This document shows, one piece after another, positions 5,652 to 15,375 of a stretch of DNA of 64,000 nucleotides; position 1 is the first letter of the stretch; each line of letters starts with the position of its first letter. The notes under the pieces were generated by a model. It searched no databases. It was not told the origin of the DNA and saw only the letters and a program-made list of their open reading frames with translations. The position numbers and the translations under genes were made by a program. This stretch comes from Rhizomicrobium sp. (GTDB lineage Bacteria > Pseudomonadota > Alphaproteobacteria > Micropepsales > Micropepsaceae), in NCBI GenBank assembly GCA_036512455.1, contig DATCAT010000014.1, positions 157,205 to 221,204 on the forward strand, written 5' to 3'.

Positions 5652-6307
5652 GAGCGAAACAGCCTCGTATATTGGGTTTCGTGTTGGATCGACGTCCATT
5701 CGACGACCGGCGCTGCCGAGCCGACATCGCGGGTATCGCGGCGCAGCGCGTCATCCGCCGCCGCGATGACCGCCGGCTGCAACGCCGCGAGCACGCGCTG
5801 TCCCGCTGTCTGTCCGAGCGGAATGGTGCGGATGCCGGCGGAAATCAAATTGCTCACCACCGCGTGGAAGAACGCGATCAGCGCCGGCCTGAGCGGCACG
5901 CCCGATGAAGCGGCGGCAATGCCGACGGCGGAAGGGTAGGGCACCCATCCCTCCGGCAGAGCCACCGCGCCCCACGCGGCGCGGAACGCCGTCATGAAGG
6001 CTTGGCCCTGCGCCTTGTGTTCGAGCTCGAACTCCAGCGTCGGCACGAAGGCACGGGCTTCTTCCAGGGCATCCGCCAGCGCGGCGCGATCCTTTGCTTC
6101 GTAGGCGGCGCGCAGCATCGCGCCGTTTACCGGACCGAACTCATGCGCCAGTCCGCTCGCGATCCAGCCGCGCAGGCTGTCCTCGTCGCGCACCAGTTCC
6201 GCTTCGACGGCGTATTCGATGCCGTGCGAATAGCTGAAGGCGCCGACCGGAAAGGACGGCGACAGCCAGCTCATCAGCCGGTAGAGCGCGTCGCCGTCAG
6301 TGGTCAT
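5648..6307 (-). CDS. ureF: Urease accessory protein UreF
   Basis: [16 protein letters not shown] at the N-terminus, [11 protein letters not shown] at the C-terminus. Start taken at MTTDGD (6307). Confidence 0.95.
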
Positions 6308-11265: not shown

Positions 11266-11284
11266 AAGGGGTCGGTGCTGGCCG
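11266..11284. repeat. Left target-site duplication (AAGGGGTC) plus left terminal inverted repeat
   Basis: Read directly from sequence; matches the right end. Confidence 0.88.
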
Positions 11285-11341
11285 AATTAGGCCACTCTGC
11301 ATTCAAATTGAGCCACTCGTAGCGAAACGATTCGTACCACG

Positions 11342-11839
11342 CTACCGCGTCTGACCTGTATCAGGGCTAGGCGCGCCCGGTGCTTCATCTGCCGATGGTA
11401 CCGACGTGTCTGGCAAATCGAGTCTCTTGAAAAAATCGTTGTTACAGATTTGACCAACGTATGGGACAAAGCCGTCTCTCGCACCGGGTGCGCCGTTGAC
11501 AACACCTTCGAGCTTGGCATCAACGATCATCGAATTGCCGTTGTGCAGCGTTATCGTGAGATAGCAAATTGCAGTCACGTAGCAGTTGGGTTGGGTGAGA
11601 CAATCAACTGATTCGTAACGGACGAACTGGGAGCCGCCCACAGTCGTTGTTTGTGGCATTCCGAGCGTTGCTGTAATCGTGTCTATACTTTTCCCAACTA
11701 GAAGCGGCCCGACAACGGGATAAGACTCGATTGGACGTTCCTGTGTAAGGCGAGCTTGCACGATAGATGCGCAGGCTGACAGAAACGAAAGAGCGACCAA
11801 AGATGAAAGCATAATCTGTATGAGAGGGTTTCTTATCAT
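11342..11839 (-). CDS. Hypothetical lipoprotein (IS passenger)
   Basis: Hydrophobic signal ending in lipobox-like LSAC. Three further Cys. ATG directly abuts the upstream TGA (TGAATG). Confidence 0.65.
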   Translation of the reverse strand: MIRNPLIQIMLSSLVALSFLSACASIVQARLTQERPIESYPVVGPLLVGKSIDTITATLGMPQTTTVGGSQFVRYESVDCLTQPNCYVTAICYLTITLHNGNSMIVDAKLEGVVNGAPGARDGFVPYVGQICNNDFFKRLDLPDTSVPSADEAPGAPSPDTGQTR

Positions 11840-12307
11840 TCACAAATCCTCCGAAAACCCCACGTTCACGATCAATCCGCTCTGAATCGCCGTCTGATAC
11901 CGGGCACCTACGCGCAAGCGAAACTCATGGCTGAAACCATATTCCAGCCCCGCGCCCGCCCTCACGCCGAACGAGGACACGTCACCCGGAATGCTCACGT
12001 ATTCCGCCCCTATTGTTCCGAAGAGCGAAACACGATTCCATTCACGGAATCGCCAGTTGGCGTAGGCATCCACATAGCCACCGTTGAATCGCACCGGAAG
12101 AAATTGAGAGCCCACATACCCGGCTTCCAAATCCAGATACCGATTCAGGTGGAATCCAGCGCCGCCATCATAAGCCTGAAAAGTAATTCCGCCCGCTGAG
12201 ACGAAATCGTAGTCGGCTGCAAGATATGGCCCAAAGTCGTCGGCGGATGCGCGTAAGGGCCATAGGCAAACGAGGCCAAGTACCGCCACCAATTTCAAAA
12301 TTCTCAT
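11840..12307 (-). CDS. Small outer-membrane beta-barrel protein (porin/OmpA-like; IS passenger)
   Basis: Signal peptide MRILKLVAVLGLVCLWPLRASA. Alternating aromatic strands (GAGFHLNRYLDLEAGY, GAGLEYGF, RLRVGARYQ). Purine-rich RBS before ATG 12307. Confidence 0.7.
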   Translation of the reverse strand: MRILKLVAVLGLVCLWPLRASADDFGPYLAADYDFVSAGGITFQAYDGGAGFHLNRYLDLEAGYVGSQFLPVRFNGGYVDAYANWRFREWNRVSLFGTIGAEYVSIPGDVSSFGVRAGAGLEYGFSHEFRLRVGARYQTAIQSGLIVNVGFSEDL

Positions 12308-12337
12308 ATCCCCATCCCCTCTGGTGATCGGGGAGTT

Positions 12338-12496
12338 AGAAAACCTAGCTAGGCAAGGTCGCACACGGCTTTAGGCTCCTAAGCCCTGAACATACCCGTA
12401 TGCCTCCTCGACCATAAAGGTTGAGGAGTGCTGGTGACGGCGGCACTTACGCCGCCTAGCTAGGGGTTTCTACGCCCCGGACCGGTGTGTGCACCG
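12338..12496 (-). ncRNA. Putative structured RNA leader (chain of hairpins); possibly related to phage C4/a1b1-type regulatory RNAs
   Basis: Hairpins at 12404-12428, 12439-12456, 12463-12478 and 12483-12496. CCTAGCTAGG occurs twice (12344, 12455). Family link and strand are inference. Confidence 0.35.
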
Positions 12497-12767
12497 ATCT
12501 AGGAGAAATATGTCACAGAACTGTAAGTTGCGAAATCCTATTTCCAACTTTTCTACGTTGCGTAGTAACATCAAACTATGTCCACACGACTACCCGGCAG
12601 CGAAGCCATACCGATTCCATTTCCAGAACCCGGCTGCTGGATGAAGGAAAATCAGTCCAAAAATTTCGGCGAGTTTCAATGTGGGCTTTGTAGGGGCAAT
12701 TTCTACAAAACGGCGGATAACAGGCTCTACGTCTATTTGGAGATTATGACGTGGAAGGACGTGTGTA

Positions 12768-13019
12768 TTAAGACTTACATGCCACTTCGCCTGCCGCATG
12801 AGGCAGAAAGCATTTTGTACATACGTTGGGAGGAAACAGGGGTGCGCCTGCGGCAAGACGATCATCCCGCCATTGATGCAACTTGGCAGCCGCGAGATTG
12901 AGTTCCTCATCGGTCATTTTCTCCGCTCCGCCGATGTAAGCCACACCCAATTCCTCGAAGCGCCGTTTTAGGCGCTCACTCACAAATTCGATAGCCATGA
13001 TGATATCTGTTTCGTCCAA
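12768..13019 (-). CDS. Hypothetical protein (IS passenger)
   Basis: 83-aa ORF with TTG start just downstream of a sigma70-like promoter. No family recognised; overlapping alternative ORFs exist. Confidence 0.35.
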   Translation of the reverse strand: MDETDIIMAIEFVSERLKRRFEELGVAYIGGAEKMTDEELNLAAAKLHQWRDDRLAAGAPLFPPNVCTKCFLPHAAGEVACKS

Positions 13020-13037
13020 TTAATCCGTACACAGACT

Positions 13038-13065
13038 ATTATCTCACGATGCAGATAAAAGTCAA
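13038..13065 (-). promoter_or_regulatory. Sigma70-like promoter TTGACT-N16-GATAAT with internal palindrome TTATCT-N8-AGATAA
   Basis: Read on the minus strand just after the transposase stop. Confidence 0.55.
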
Positions 13066-13074
13066 GAAATCCAT

Positions 13075-13965
13075 CTAGCCAACCCCGCCATCAATTACCC
13101 GGAACCGTCCCACCATCCGCCCTTGCGGCGCAGGCGTCACCACGCCATCCAGCGCCGCCTCGACAAGCTCGCTGATCGTCCAGACATGATCGACAACGCC
13201 CAACTGCATCGCAGGCGTGATTCGTAGAGCCTCATGGACGCGACAAAGATTGTAGTGCGCCACATACAGCGCCACCGCTGCGCAGTGATTCAAATAGGTC
13301 TTGCTGAAGCCGTTTGTCAGCCGCGTGAAGCGGCGCTGGCTCATGCGCAGTGTGAGGTTCTGACGCTCGACATAAGAGGTGCTGATATGCGTCGGCACGC
13401 CATGTACGGCGTTGCGGGTTACCTTTACTACCTGACCCGGCGAATAGCGTCGCGCAGCTTCCGGGCTACCGTTTACCGCGTAATGTTTTTCCACAACGCC
13501 GTGCGCGCAGTTCTCGCCAAAGGCGTGAGCAATGGCCCACGGGTAGGCGTTGAAGCCGTCCGTTGAAATCTCAGGCGAGCCGATGACGCGGGCGCGCAGA
13601 TCGTCCGCGAAGTCCTGCGTATTGATCGCGGTACGCTTGCCGGTCTTGTACGTGATGATCGCTTTCGCGGAGTCGGCCAGTGCAATGAAGGTGTATTGAT
13701 CCCCGACCATGTCGCTGTCATCGGGCTTCACAAGGCGCTGCTTCTTGCCGACGAACGCCCAGATTTCGTCGAGTTCGATCCGGTTGACGTGAAGGCCGCG
13801 CATCATGGCGCTGTGCAGCTTCAAGCAGCCTTCGCCGACGCGGACGCCTAGCGACATAACCGTCCCGCGATTGACACCAGTGAGTCGTTCGGTTGCGCGG
13901 ATGCTGACACCGTCGCAAAGGGCGGAGATCGCTGCCACCTGTCGCTCGCGAGGAAGAACGTTCAT
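13075..13965 (-). CDS. IS1-family DDE transposase (single ORF, N-terminal HTH, no zinc finger)
   Basis: HTH VSIRATERLTGVNRGTV; catalytic ELDEIWAFVGKK, ISTDGFNAY and STSYVERQNLTLR; C-terminal YNLCRVHEALRITPAM. Start taken at MNVLPRE (13965). Confidence 0.9.
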   Translation of the reverse strand: MNVLPRERQVAAISALCDGVSIRATERLTGVNRGTVMSLGVRVGEGCLKLHSAMMRGLHVNRIELDEIWAFVGKKQRLVKPDDSDMVGDQYTFIALADSAKAIITYKTGKRTAINTQDFADDLRARVIGSPEISTDGFNAYPWAIAHAFGENCAHGVVEKHYAVNGSPEAARRYSPGQVVKVTRNAVHGVPTHISTSYVERQNLTLRMSQRRFTRLTNGFSKTYLNHCAAVALYVAHYNLCRVHEALRITPAMQLGVVDHVWTISELVEAALDGVVTPAPQGRMVGRFRVIDGGVG

Positions 13966-13982
13966 TCTGTCACTCTCAAAGT

Positions 13983-14056
13983 TGGCTCCCCGGCTGGGTG
14001 TCGATCCCAAGTCTTCCGGCTGTAAGTCGTCTGTCCTACCGTTAGACGACCGGGGA
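13983..14056 (-). ncRNA. tRNA-like RNA (pseudo-tRNA; Gln-type acceptor and D arms, nominal UAC anticodon, collapsed anticodon stem)
   Basis: 74 nt: TCCCCGG TC GTCT AACGGTA GGAC A GACGA CTTACAG CCGGA AGAC TTGGG ATCGACA CCCAG CCGGGGA G CCA. Perfect 7-bp acceptor stem, encoded CCA, D and T stems intact, anticodon stem has only 2 Watson-Crick pairs. Confidence 0.8.
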
Positions 14057-14072
14057 GAATTCGCATCCTATA

Positions 14073-14144
14073 GCTATCATATATGATAGCTCGCTGATCT
14101 TGTCAACTGAAAAGTATCAGATATGATAGCTTTCATATCTGATA
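14073..14144. promoter_or_regulatory. Divergent promoter/operator region with palindromes
   Basis: GCTATCATATATGATAGC (14073-14090). TATCAGATATGA-N6-TCATATCTGATA (14115-14144). Minus-strand TTGACA (14106-14101)-N17-TATATG pointing at the tRNA-like RNA. Confidence 0.7.
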
Positions 14145-14155
14145 GTGGAGGATCA

Positions 14156-14395
14156 ATGGGTTACCCGAAAACGCAGCCGGACTGGGAGACGCGGGCGGCG
14201 GCTTTCATCAAGGCCGAGATACTGAAGGCTGAGATCACCTACGAAGAGCTAGCCAAGCGAATGAAACGGCACGGATTCGCCGAAACGAAGGCGTCTGTGA
14301 CCAACAAGCTATCCCGGGGTACTTTCCCCGCCTCGTTCTTTCTCGCGGCTATAGCAGCCTTGGAATTGCCCGGGGTAAGCTTGGAGGATGTCTGA
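14156..14395 (+). CDS. Small HTH DNA-binding protein (DUF6471-like)
   Basis: GGAGG RBS at 14147-14151. ITYEELAKRMKRHGFAETKASVTNKLSRGTFPASFFL resembles DUF6471/XRE-like HTH proteins found next to IS transposases. Confidence 0.8.
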   Translation: MGYPKTQPDWETRAAAFIKAEILKAEITYEELAKRMKRHGFAETKASVTNKLSRGTFPASFFLAAIAALELPGVSLEDV

Positions 14396-14441
14396 GAGGC
14401 GTGAGTTTGTCGCCTGAGTCTCAAATCGTCAGAGATGCAGC

Positions 14442-15257
14442 ATGAGCGACAAGCCCGACCCCACCACAGGCAAGACCCAAGGCAGAGAGCCCCCAAATCC
14501 ACCGCTCCCGACGAGCCATTCGAGTCCCGATAGCCATCAGCATCACCAGTTGAGCGCACACAAGGGCTATGAAACCGCAAAACACCTCGCCAAGCGCCTG
14601 CGTCAGGTTGCTTTGGAGTTGTCCGTTTCGGATTGGCTCATGGTTTTCTTCACTGCCGTCATTGCTGCGGCCACTGTATGGAGCGCCGTAGTGGTTCGTG
14701 GGCAACAGGTCATCATGCAAGGTCAACTGGACGAAATGAGAAATGAGCAGCGAGCTTGGGTCTACGCTGACATTGATCCCAATGCGTCTCTCGTCATTAA
14801 CGGCTGGGATGGCGTAGTCCCGCTGCAAATTGTTCTCCACAACGTAGGAAAATCGCCCGCCACTCAGATTCTTACGTTCGCGCATCTCTATCCGATCAGC
14901 GGTAGCGGGCCAAACGTTTCTGTCCGCGATTACCCGAGTCTGTGCTACGCGAAAACCTATTCCGAGATGGGTTCCCACATCTTCCCCGGCCAAAGTATTC
15001 CGGCAACGCGGTCCCTTAGTCAGGCCGAAACCGGTTCGTGGGATGTGACGCCGGTTTATCCCGGCACGGTCACTTTCCAAATCCGAGGATGTATTCTGTA
15101 CAAGAGCGGAGCCGATCCAACGCCCCACCACACATGGATCAACGCTAGCATTATCAATGCCAATGGATGGCCGATGTTCGCTATCGCTAAGGGTGATCGA
15201 ACGAACACCCCCATCCGATTGGAATTCACTTTGGTGAAAGCCGAAGTTGATGACTAA
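14442..15257 (+). CDS. Hypothetical single-pass membrane protein (IS passenger)
   Basis: Disordered N-terminus, one TM helix (WLMVFFTAVIAAATVWSAVVV), coiled segment QLDEMRNEQRAWV, then a beta-rich domain. Confidence 0.65.
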   Translation: MSDKPDPTTGKTQGREPPNPPLPTSHSSPDSHQHHQLSAHKGYETAKHLAKRLRQVALELSVSDWLMVFFTAVIAAATVWSAVVVRGQQVIMQGQLDEMRNEQRAWVYADIDPNASLVINGWDGVVPLQIVLHNVGKSPATQILTFAHLYPISGSGPNVSVRDYPSLCYAKTYSEMGSHIFPGQSIPATRSLSQAETGSWDVTPVYPGTVTFQIRGCILYKSGADPTPHHTWINASIINANGWPMFAIAKGDRTNTPIRLEFTLVKAEVDD

Positions 15258-15356
15258 TGCGACTGCTGTCGCCAACGCGCGCATCCCGATCATCTAGGAA
15301 TGCCCGCCGCTGGTTGCGATGCCAAAAGAACAAAACCAGCCACTGAGGGGCAAAAC

Positions 15357-15375
15357 CGGCCAGCACCAAGGGGTC
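15357..15375. repeat. Right terminal inverted repeat plus target-site duplication (AAGGGGTC)
   Basis: Read directly from sequence; matches the left end. Confidence 0.88.

Follow-up and report, generated by a model that had tools for sequence, protein, structure and literature searches.

The stretch of Rhizomicrobium sp. DNA analysed here (64,000 nucleotides of contig DATCAT010000014.1, assembly GCA_036512455.1, positions 157,205 to 221,204; hereafter the window) carries a transposon in which a tRNA-like RNA is encoded directly upstream of an IS1-family transposase gene. The anticodon of this RNA, UAC, is matched by a patch of in-frame GUA codons in the transposase. RNA and codon patch are conserved together in related elements, the codons are missing or nearly so after old losses of the RNA, and in relatives with a UCC or a UAU tRNA the transposase carries codons that correspond to that anticodon. 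The comparisons described below make it probable that the RNA is an irregular valine-type tRNA that is co-transcribed with the transposase and gates its translation through the GUA patch.

Structure of the tRNA-like RNA

Read on the minus strand from 14056 to 13983, the RNA (UCCCCGGUCGUCUAACGGUAGGACAGACGACUUACAGCCGGAAGACUUGGGAUCGACACCCAGCCGGGGAGCCA) can be drawn as a 74-nt cloverleaf with a terminal CCA. The acceptor stem consists of seven Watson-Crick pairs out of seven, with U1-A72 as the first pair, and is followed by G73 and CCA. The D stem is formed by GUCU and GGAC and both G18 and G19 are present. The T stem (UUGGG/CCCAG) closes a T loop with the sequence AUCGACA, in which position 54 is an A, and the anticodon loop reads CUUACAG. 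In the anticodon stem two of the five pairs are Watson-Crick pairs (C-G and G-C), flanked by G.A, A.G and A.C. Of the cloverleaf features of an elongator tRNA-Val(UAC), the RNA has the 7-bp acceptor stem, the 4-bp D stem and the 5-bp T stem, as well as U8, A14, G18, G19, U33, R37, G53-C61, C56 and A58. A regular 5-bp anticodon stem and a T54-Psi55 T loop are not found; the latter has A54 instead.

The RNA reaches 33.7 bits with the Rfam tRNA model (RF00005), for which the gathering score is 29 (E = 9.3e-5 when 2 kb are searched), and a covariance model made from the family's own alignment gives 80.5 bits. No other Rfam families were found in the leader. The sequence occurs once in the 4.74-Mb genome. 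An origin from a host tRNA was rejected because no host tRNA is a close overall match and only the D arm is identical to that of a host tRNA, tRNA-Gln(CUG). A leftover tRNA half at an island junction was also rejected, since the RNA lies in the middle of a transposon, between a regulator gene and the transposase. Two further structural points may be mentioned. The variable region has the sequence AGAC, which is complementary to the GUCU strand of the D stem, and this alternative fold is seen in the minimum-free-energy structure. In all elements with the upstream layout of the window element (type A, see below) a C precedes U1 (13983-14057 in the window), and a possible pairing of this C with G73 would lengthen the acceptor stem to 8 bp.

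The first-pass annotation of the window had described the acceptor stem, G73, CCA, D stem, G18/G19, T arm, loops and weak anticodon stem, and all of these can be read in the sequence. Its placement of the RNA, 17 nt before the ATG of an IS1-family transposase with TTGACA-N17-TATATG upstream, is likewise correct, and the D arm that it called Gln-like is the one shared with host tRNA-Gln(CUG).

Conservation of the RNA in related elements

Homologous transposases are present in 47 of the 301 genomes of the order and occur widely in soil and peat Alphaproteobacteria, Acidobacteriota, Myxococcota, Verrucomicrobiota and other groups. Each of the public collections contains more than 590 relatives, and the related genomes derive from samples of the SPRUCE and palsa/fen type. 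Of the related elements, 26 have a UAC tRNA or tRNA-like RNA in the same slot; they come from Rhizomicrobium, other Alphaproteobacteria and soil metagenomes. Relatives are non-independent samples, which applies to all carrier and patch counts given here. The elements, to which we refer by L numbers (the window element is L002), differ in the region upstream of the transposase. In the type A layout a DUF6471 gene and putative operators accompany the tRNA-like RNA, which is separated from the ATG by 17-22 nt. In type B the tRNA is part of a structured leader of about 330 nt and lies about 130 nt upstream of the start codon. Type C elements have the DUF6471 gene and no tRNA, and type D elements have a different leader.

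All type A and type B RNAs score above the Rfam tRNA threshold (31.7-46.4 bits), and several of them are labelled tRNA-Val(tac) by ARAGORN. Pairing of the cloverleaf amounts to 92.8% in 14 aligned copies, compared to 37-64% for slid controls. In these copies both partners have changed in seven pairs, of which four belong to the acceptor stem, two to the T stem and one to the anticodon stem. The acceptor/T split is 7/5 in every aligned copy. The covariance model of the family detects further matches upstream of the transposase in Rhizomicrobium, Aestuariivirga, Beijerinckiaceae, Xanthobacteraceae and seven metagenome contigs; it has no match in type C or type D elements. The window RNA is identical at 74 of 74 positions to the RNAs of L007 and L034, of which the transposase DNA is only 76-83% identical to that of the window. 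Identity of the RNA despite the diverged transposase DNA indicates strong purifying selection on its exact form, the weak anticodon stem included. An A31.C39 mismatch is kept across the type A copies and is swapped to C31.A39 in L015. A regular anticodon stem and T loop are present in several relatives (L046, L051 and L118).

The anticodon is UAC in all 26 carriers, including those in which the acceptor, D and T arms belong to a different tRNA body (L039, L051, L118, L124). Acceptor stems vary among UCCCCGG, UGCCCCU, UGGGGAU, GCGGGGA and CCCCGGA, T loops are canonical or not, and the CCA is encoded in some copies and not in L041 and L046-L048. Across these differing bodies, the most conserved feature is a YUUACAR-type loop with UAC. 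The identity set of valyl-tRNA synthetase (ValRS) consists of A35, C36 and A73. A35 and C36 are present in all copies and A73 in the long-leader copies and L117, with G73 in the window copy.

These data uphold the first-pass claim that a tRNA-shaped RNA is maintained here and is not in random decay, as the RNA is conserved across elements and its acceptor and T stems covary. The opposite outcome, homologous elements without the structure, did not occur, and the same RNA stands before many homologous transposases. As a check, the annotation had further named a conserved cloverleaf with acceptor-stem covariation and a variable anticodon arm upstream of homologous genes. The former was found, but the anticodon arm is not the variable part, its UAC loop being the best conserved element. 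The accompanying idea that decoding is lost and the anticodon arm free to vary is not supported, in view of the constant loop and of the in-frame GUA patch that matches it.

Although the type A elements occur at scattered places in the transposase tree, they share DUF6471-promoter-tRNA modules of nearly identical sequence, and the left module seems to have been exchanged between elements by recombination. The type B leader (L008, L010-L013, L016-L019, L023, L037, L040) is conserved and structured over about 330 nt upstream of the ATG. It opens with a short open reading frame (ORF) encoding M-x-R-R-V, followed by two covarying hairpins (loop GCGCUGGCCGAGC; GGGCCGUUCC/GGAACGGCCC), AAUCGGC, the tRNA and another hairpin. 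Pairing of AGGGAU with AUCCCU could free or sequester the Shine-Dalgarno sequence. The type B leader has no matching Rfam family.

The GUA codon patch

The transposase gene of the window has GTA at codons 179, 180, 182 and 187, in a patch of 13 codons located between the second Asp and the Glu of the DDE triad. Among 19 carriers, the codon is GTA for Val179 and for Val180 in 19 of 19, for Val182 in 18 of 19 and for Val187 in 15 of 19. Counting all valines of the 13-codon patch in these carriers, GTA is used for 84 of 89 (94%), against 47 of 428 (11%) for the valines elsewhere in the same genes. The seven further metagenomic carriers use GTA for 27 of 32 patch valines. The codons are clustered, with 4-7 GUA codons within the patch. 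GTA makes up only 3-7% of the valine codons of the host, which has a G+C content of 64%, and in 30 distant relatives that lack the tRNA it accounts for 7% of the patch valines. The residues found at the patch positions in tRNA-less relatives are V, I or L.

The preference is for the codon and not for a nucleotide motif. Of the GTA triplets that fall within the patch in the 19 carriers, 84 are in the reading frame and 3 are not, and the invariant neighbours of the patch (R, R, Y, S, P, G) have fully scrambled synonymous codons. By our count, new valines appeared independently about 10 times at variable patch positions in separate lineages, and 9 of them are GTA. The choice of the matching rare codon, in frame and independent of position, speaks for an encounter of the RNA with these codons on the ribosome. 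The six GTA codons of the window transposase (164, 179, 180, 182, 187 and 290) are all at sites where relatives also use GTA. Codon 290 is less diagnostic, as GTA is present there in several tRNA-less relatives as well. Decoding of a GUAA quadruplet by the 8-nt loops of long-leader copies was considered and rejected, because GUAA is not consistently present in the patch. The match between GUA and the UAC anticodon points to a codon-anticodon function, and not to the decoy or pure processing switch that the first-pass annotation had in mind.

Loss of the RNA and exchange of the anticodon

In a maximum-likelihood tree of the transposases the carriers all belong to a single, well-supported clade, in which the RNA was lost at least four times. 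Where the loss is old, the GTA codons of the patch are gone or nearly gone: the type D/E clade has none, and L020, L021 and L022 have 0, 0 and 2, respectively. Two elements in which the loss is recent (L009 and L038) retain the GTA patch.

In one element of the same clade and with the same leader, L121, the slot is occupied by a near-canonical tRNA of 73 bits with the anticodon UCC (1251-1326 on metagenome contig Ga0187875_10028520). It has A73 and its body is not Gly-like. The L121 transposase uses GGA for 8 of its 20 glycine codons, including the conserved G156, G177 and G189, against a clade mean of 11%. Its patch has no GTA, and the valines in it are encoded by GTT and GTC. Another pair is found in acidobacterial elements that are more distant from the window element and carry a tRNA with a UAU anticodon. 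In these elements (L061, L074, L082 and L152) ATA is used for 2 of 2, 2 of 3, 3 of 3 and 3 of 4 patch isoleucines, and the genes have 5-8 ATA codons in total compared to the typical 0-2. Several relatives of the UAU elements, in which no tRNA was detected, have one ATA at a fixed patch position (GAG GTT ATA TCC).

The strongest independent signals are the two events of loss and decay, the UCC/GGA exchange in one lineage and the UAU/AUA lineages. The situation resembles that of bldA, the tRNA-Leu(UAA) of Streptomyces, which gates a few genes that keep rare TTA codons. As would be expected of a bldA-type system, a codon that is rare in the host is kept at conserved positions of the target gene (94% in the patch against 11% in the rest of the gene), and the presence of the tRNA tracks the codons: UAC in the 26 carriers, decay after old losses, UCC with GGA and UAU with AUA.

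Other tRNA genes near related transposases were compared with the codons of these genes. L064, from Chthoniobacter, has a UUA-anticodon tRNA (5822-5896, minus strand) on the opposite strand 176 nt upstream of the transposase, and the transposase has a single in-frame TAA at codon 164. In this single case the TAA codon and the UUA tRNA could represent self-suppression, or the gene could simply be a pseudogene. An ochre-type pairing was rejected for L052 and L078 (anticodon UUA) and for L070 (CUA), in which the transposase has no in-frame stop; only L064 has one. The genome of the window itself contains an IS1-family paralog with 35% identity (L003), in which a Gly-like tRNA-like RNA (1306-1376 on contig C15; 32 bits, C33 in the loop) lies about 120 nt before the ATG. 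A match with GGA or GGG was rejected in this case, as no enrichment was seen. On contig C27 of the same genome (97430-99302), a class-II UUA tRNA, a 137-aa ORF and an ACU tRNA are found beside an IS1595-like zinc-ribbon transposase gene. Codon matching was rejected here because the gene has no in-frame TAA or AGT codons.

The transposon around the RNA

The positions of the features are collected in Table 1. The transposon spans 11274-15367 (4,094 bp) and is complete, with inverted ends and an 8-bp target duplication. The exact inverted ends, GGTGCTGGCC, are located at 11274 and 15367, and the ends of relatives are alike (GG(T)RCTG(G/T)CC). Ends that begin with GGT and a target duplication of 8-9 bp are characteristic of the IS1 family and are also found in L009, L025 and L029. 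The transposase matches Pfam DDE_Tnp_IS1 (PF03400) with 26.9 bits (cut-off 24.1), and its best NCBIfam match is the IS1 family with 54.9 bits, which is under the equivalog cut-off of 100. Plasmid-borne relatives are annotated by PGAP as 'IS1 family transposase'. The classical insA/insB layout with a -1 frameshift is absent; the uninterrupted ORF of 296 aa puts the protein in a single-ORF subgroup and not with classical IS1. Judged from these matches, the transposase is a distant single-ORF member of the IS1 family.

Table 1. Positions of the tRNA-like RNA, the GUA codons and the surrounding transposon features in the window.
Feature	Position	Strand	Remarks
Left target-site duplication	11266-11273		AAGGGGTC; identical 8-mer at 15368-15375, just outside the inverted repeats
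Left terminal inverted repeat	11274-11297	plus	GGTGCTGGCCGAATTAGGCCACTC; exact 12-nt match GGTGCTGGCCG(A/G) to the other end
Transposase	13075-13965	minus	Single-ORF IS1-family DDE protein, 296 aa; Pfam DDE_Tnp_IS1
GTA codon 290	13096-13098	minus	Near the C-terminus (VIDGG); GTA in 17/18 carriers
GUA patch	13405-13431	minus	Codons 179, 180, 182 and 187 are GTA (GTA GTA AAG GTA ACC CGC AAC GCC GTA)
GTA codon 164	13474-13476	minus	GTA in 11/12 carriers with Val at this site
Spacer	13966-13982	minus	ACUUUGAGAGUGACAGA, 17 nt; U-rich start, Shine-Dalgarno-like GAGAG; from CCA end (13983) to ATG (13965)
tRNA-like RNA	13983-14056	minus	Anticodon UAC at 14024-14022, G73, encoded CCA
TATC-N6-GATA palindromes (three)	14075-14088, 14115-14128, 14131-14144		Inverted repeats between the divergent genes; likely operators
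Promoter-like motif	14078-14106	minus	TTGACA (14106-14101), 17 nt, TATATG (14083-14078); read from the sequence
DUF6471 gene	14156-14395	plus	Helix-turn-helix type; Pfam DUF6471, 73 bits; divergent from RNA and transposase
Right terminal inverted repeat	15344-15367	minus	GGTGCTGGCCGGTTTTGCCCCTCA
Right target-site duplication	15368-15375		AAGGGGTC; same 8-mer as the left copy

The inverted ends and the duplication place the RNA inside the element, giving the order promoter/operator, tRNA-like RNA, Shine-Dalgarno sequence and transposase. The promoter-like motif lies about 20 nt upstream of the RNA and is found in the same place in other short-leader copies. A reading shifted by one base is GTTGAC-N17-ATATAT. 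A consensus promoter scanner omits the TTGACA-N17-TATATG motif because the second hexamer has no final T. One of the TATC-N6-GATA palindromes overlaps the -10 of this promoter. The same divergent DUF6471 gene is present in all short-leader (type A) elements and in the tRNA-less type C relatives. From this arrangement, the DUF6471 protein is likely a repressor of the RNA/transposase promoter and the palindromes are likely operators. The spacer between the CCA and the start codon is AUUUAGGGA or GUUUUGAGGGG in other short-leader copies. Beyond the transposase the element carries three small ORFs, and on the other side the divergent DUF6471 gene and an ORF of 271 aa.

The insertion sites of the elements recur: (T)CAAGGGG or TTGATCAA adjoins the ends in the window element, L007, L025, L010, L008 and L034, and also in L015, L016, L020 and L022. 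The recurrence may reflect a preference for certain target sequences or a repeated motif of the host into which the elements insert. The idea of a guide RNA was rejected; the CAAGGGG-type flanks recur, but no complementarity to the RNA was seen and other duplications differ (CTCCGGCG, ATTTCGTT). In L012 a genuine host tRNA of 87 nt (2808-2894, 61.5 bits) is located about 100 nt from the right end of the element.

Possible mechanisms

In the mechanism that we consider probable, the element's own promoter, probably repressed by the DUF6471 protein, would yield a single transcript that contains both the tRNA and the transposase message. RNase P would cut the tRNA at its 5' end, and RNase E and exonucleases would trim it at the U-rich tract that follows the CCA. 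Such tracts are seen in the leaders, and RNase P or RNase E processing is a plausible step. The released tRNA would then be charged with valine by ValRS. This enzyme depends chiefly on A35 and C36 and will accept a foreign tRNA body that carries UAC. Because of this, and because relatives without the tRNA carry V, I or L in the patch, charging with valine is the simplest assumption; the same residues imply that no recoding need be assumed. The stable tRNA would accumulate, and only then would ribosomes traverse the 4-7 clustered GUA codons and produce full-length transposase. With a patch of rare GUA codons and a tRNA supplied by the element, the formation of full-length transposase would respond steeply to the amount of the stable tRNA that the element itself provides. 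The arrangement would function as a feed-forward filter that requires sustained transcription from a de-repressed promoter. Processing, valine charging, decoding and the direction of the effect are proposed here on the basis of sequence comparison.

In addition to the non-independence of the relatives, several observations weigh against such a gate. The decay after loss comprises two old losses, and the anticodon exchange a single lineage. The window copy is the least tRNA-like of the family, with two of five anticodon-stem pairs, A54, and G73 in place of A73, and U55 is replaced by C55 in most long-leader copies from Rhizomicrobium. ARAGORN does not recognise a tRNA in the window. The cloverleaf is not formed in the minimum-free-energy structure, in which the acceptor and T arms are kept and the D/anticodon part is refolded (z = -2.2). 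The host has its own tRNA-Val(UAC), so that GUA could strictly be read without a private tRNA. In L009 the RNA is absent, the ends are intact and a target duplication is present, and L119 has the patch and no tRNA within 3.8 kb, which indicates that the RNA is dispensable for transposition. The host tRNA and the transposed elements without the RNA suggest that the RNA is a modulator and not a requirement.

Several other explanations can be considered. The RNA could act purely in cis as a tRNA mimic, the idea of the first-pass annotation, and serve as an RNase P/3'-processing or stability signal for the transposase mRNA that is neither charged nor takes part in decoding. The features read by RNase P (acceptor, T arm, the G18/G19-C56 elbow and RCCA) are indeed the best kept in the window copy, in which the anticodon stem is weak. 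The U-rich tract after the CCA with the Shine-Dalgarno sequence directly behind it would fit such a role, as would the position of the long-leader tRNA in a structured leader of about 330 nt that may sequester the Shine-Dalgarno sequence. However, a mimic of this kind leaves unexplained why the UAC loop is invariant across different bodies, why in-frame GUA tracks the presence of the RNA and why a UCC tRNA goes with GGA codons. It also has difficulty with the copies that do not encode CCA. We regard it as unlikely. The loop might instead pair with the GUA repeats of the same mRNA, without being used for decoding by the ribosome. Loop and patch are complementary and part of one transcript, but the complementarity is only 3-4 nt, and the excess of in-frame GTA (84 against 3) at whichever positions encode valine is the signature of codon choice and not of a nucleotide motif, which makes such RNA-RNA contact very improbable. 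Hardly more can be said for private recoding, in which the RNA with its Gln-like body would be charged with an amino acid other than valine that is inserted at the GUA codons. U1-A72, G73 and the D arm shared with tRNA-Gln(CUG) are in its favour. Glutaminyl-tRNA synthetase depends on U35 and on G2-C71/G3-C70, determinants that are absent from the window RNA, whereas ValRS charges diverse UAC bodies, and the V, I or L at the patch positions of tRNA-less relatives do not call for another amino acid. The processing-only mimic, RNA-RNA pairing and recoding all fit the data less well than the valine-type gate.

A negative variant of that gate predicts the same co-conservation of anticodon and codons. 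The irregular tRNA could perform poorly at GUA or with ValRS and act as a brake, slowing ribosomes on the patch in proportion to the copy number of the element, which would amount to the negative feedback known for insertion sequences. This would account for the conserved irregularities (A54 or C55, a non-Watson-Crick anticodon stem, A31.C39) and for the fact that the host already has a normal tRNA-Val(UAC). It is less compatible with near-canonical tRNAs in the slot of some members, such as the 73-bit tRNA of L121 and the cloverleaf of L051, and a poor tRNA would slow decoding of GUA in host genes as well. We think that a brake, too, has a rather small chance of being correct. Strongly disfavoured, and the least probable of all, is a captured tRNA in decay without present function. 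ARAGORN does not recognise the window copy, and some relatives lost the RNA and still transposed, which would suit a remnant. It is contradicted by the 74/74 identity across elements with about 20% divergence in DNA, by compensatory changes in two stems and by the matched codon patch.

Relation to known systems

The proposed gate resembles bldA, where the few genes that keep a codon at conserved positions are likewise gated by its tRNA and the codon is very rare in the G+C-rich genome. It differs from bldA in that tRNA and target are on one transcript in a mobile element, that the codons are clustered (4-7 in 13), that the tRNA is irregular and that related elements use other pairs (UCC/GGA, UAU/AUA). 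Phages encode tRNAs as well, including suppressor tRNAs that recode stop codons in late genes. In both cases a mobile element brings a tRNA that is matched to the codons of its own genes, but here the carrier is a small transposon with a single target gene and a localised codon patch. The valylatable tRNA-like structure of turnip yellow mosaic virus is 3'-terminal, has a pseudoknotted acceptor and is used while attached. Like the RNA described here, it is a tRNA mimic that belongs to the mRNA of a selfish element and offers ValRS a valine anticodon. The window RNA differs in being part of a 5' leader, in having a normal acceptor stem and in that it would have to be cut free to expose its CCA.

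Compared with the IS1 family as described in ISfinder and NCBIfam NF033558, the element shares the IS1-type DDE motifs, the GGT ends and the 8-9-bp target duplication. Unlike enterobacterial IS1 it has a single ORF without the insA/insB -1 frameshift, a length of 4.1 kb, passengers on both sides, a DUF6471 regulator and the tRNA-like leader. Control of insertion sequences is known to involve promoters hidden in the ends, repressors, antisense RNAs, frameshifting and cis-preference. In full-text literature searches, no description of a tRNA-like leader or of tRNA-codon pairing in insertion sequences was found.

Irregular tRNAs of soil bacteria have been described in the paper that comes nearest to the present case, by Mukai et al. 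(2017, Nucleic Acids Res 45:2776, PMC5389517), who reported allo-tRNAs and 'polycistrons of irregular tRNAs'. The RNAs reported here are likewise irregular tRNAs from soil and peat bacteria, but the window RNA has a 7/5 acceptor/T geometry and not the 8/4 or 9/3 of a 12-bp branch, and that paper describes neither a leader position in IS1-family elements nor matching transposase codons.

The chances are about even that the principle is general, with IS1-family transposons of many soil phyla each running a private tRNA-codon gate. Each gate would consist of a co-transcribed tRNA with any anticodon and of matched rare codons, possibly a stop codon in L064, at fixed sites of the transposase, the codons following when the tRNA is exchanged. 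If the proposal is correct, transposase synthesis that hinges on a tRNA of the same element would be a new control principle and an undescribed layer of transposition control. It would explain the irregular tRNAs of soil metagenomes (Mukai et al., 2017), which have so far had no explanation, and such elements would constitute a natural stock of portable, element-specific tRNA/codon pairs for the gating of gene expression and for genetic-code engineering.

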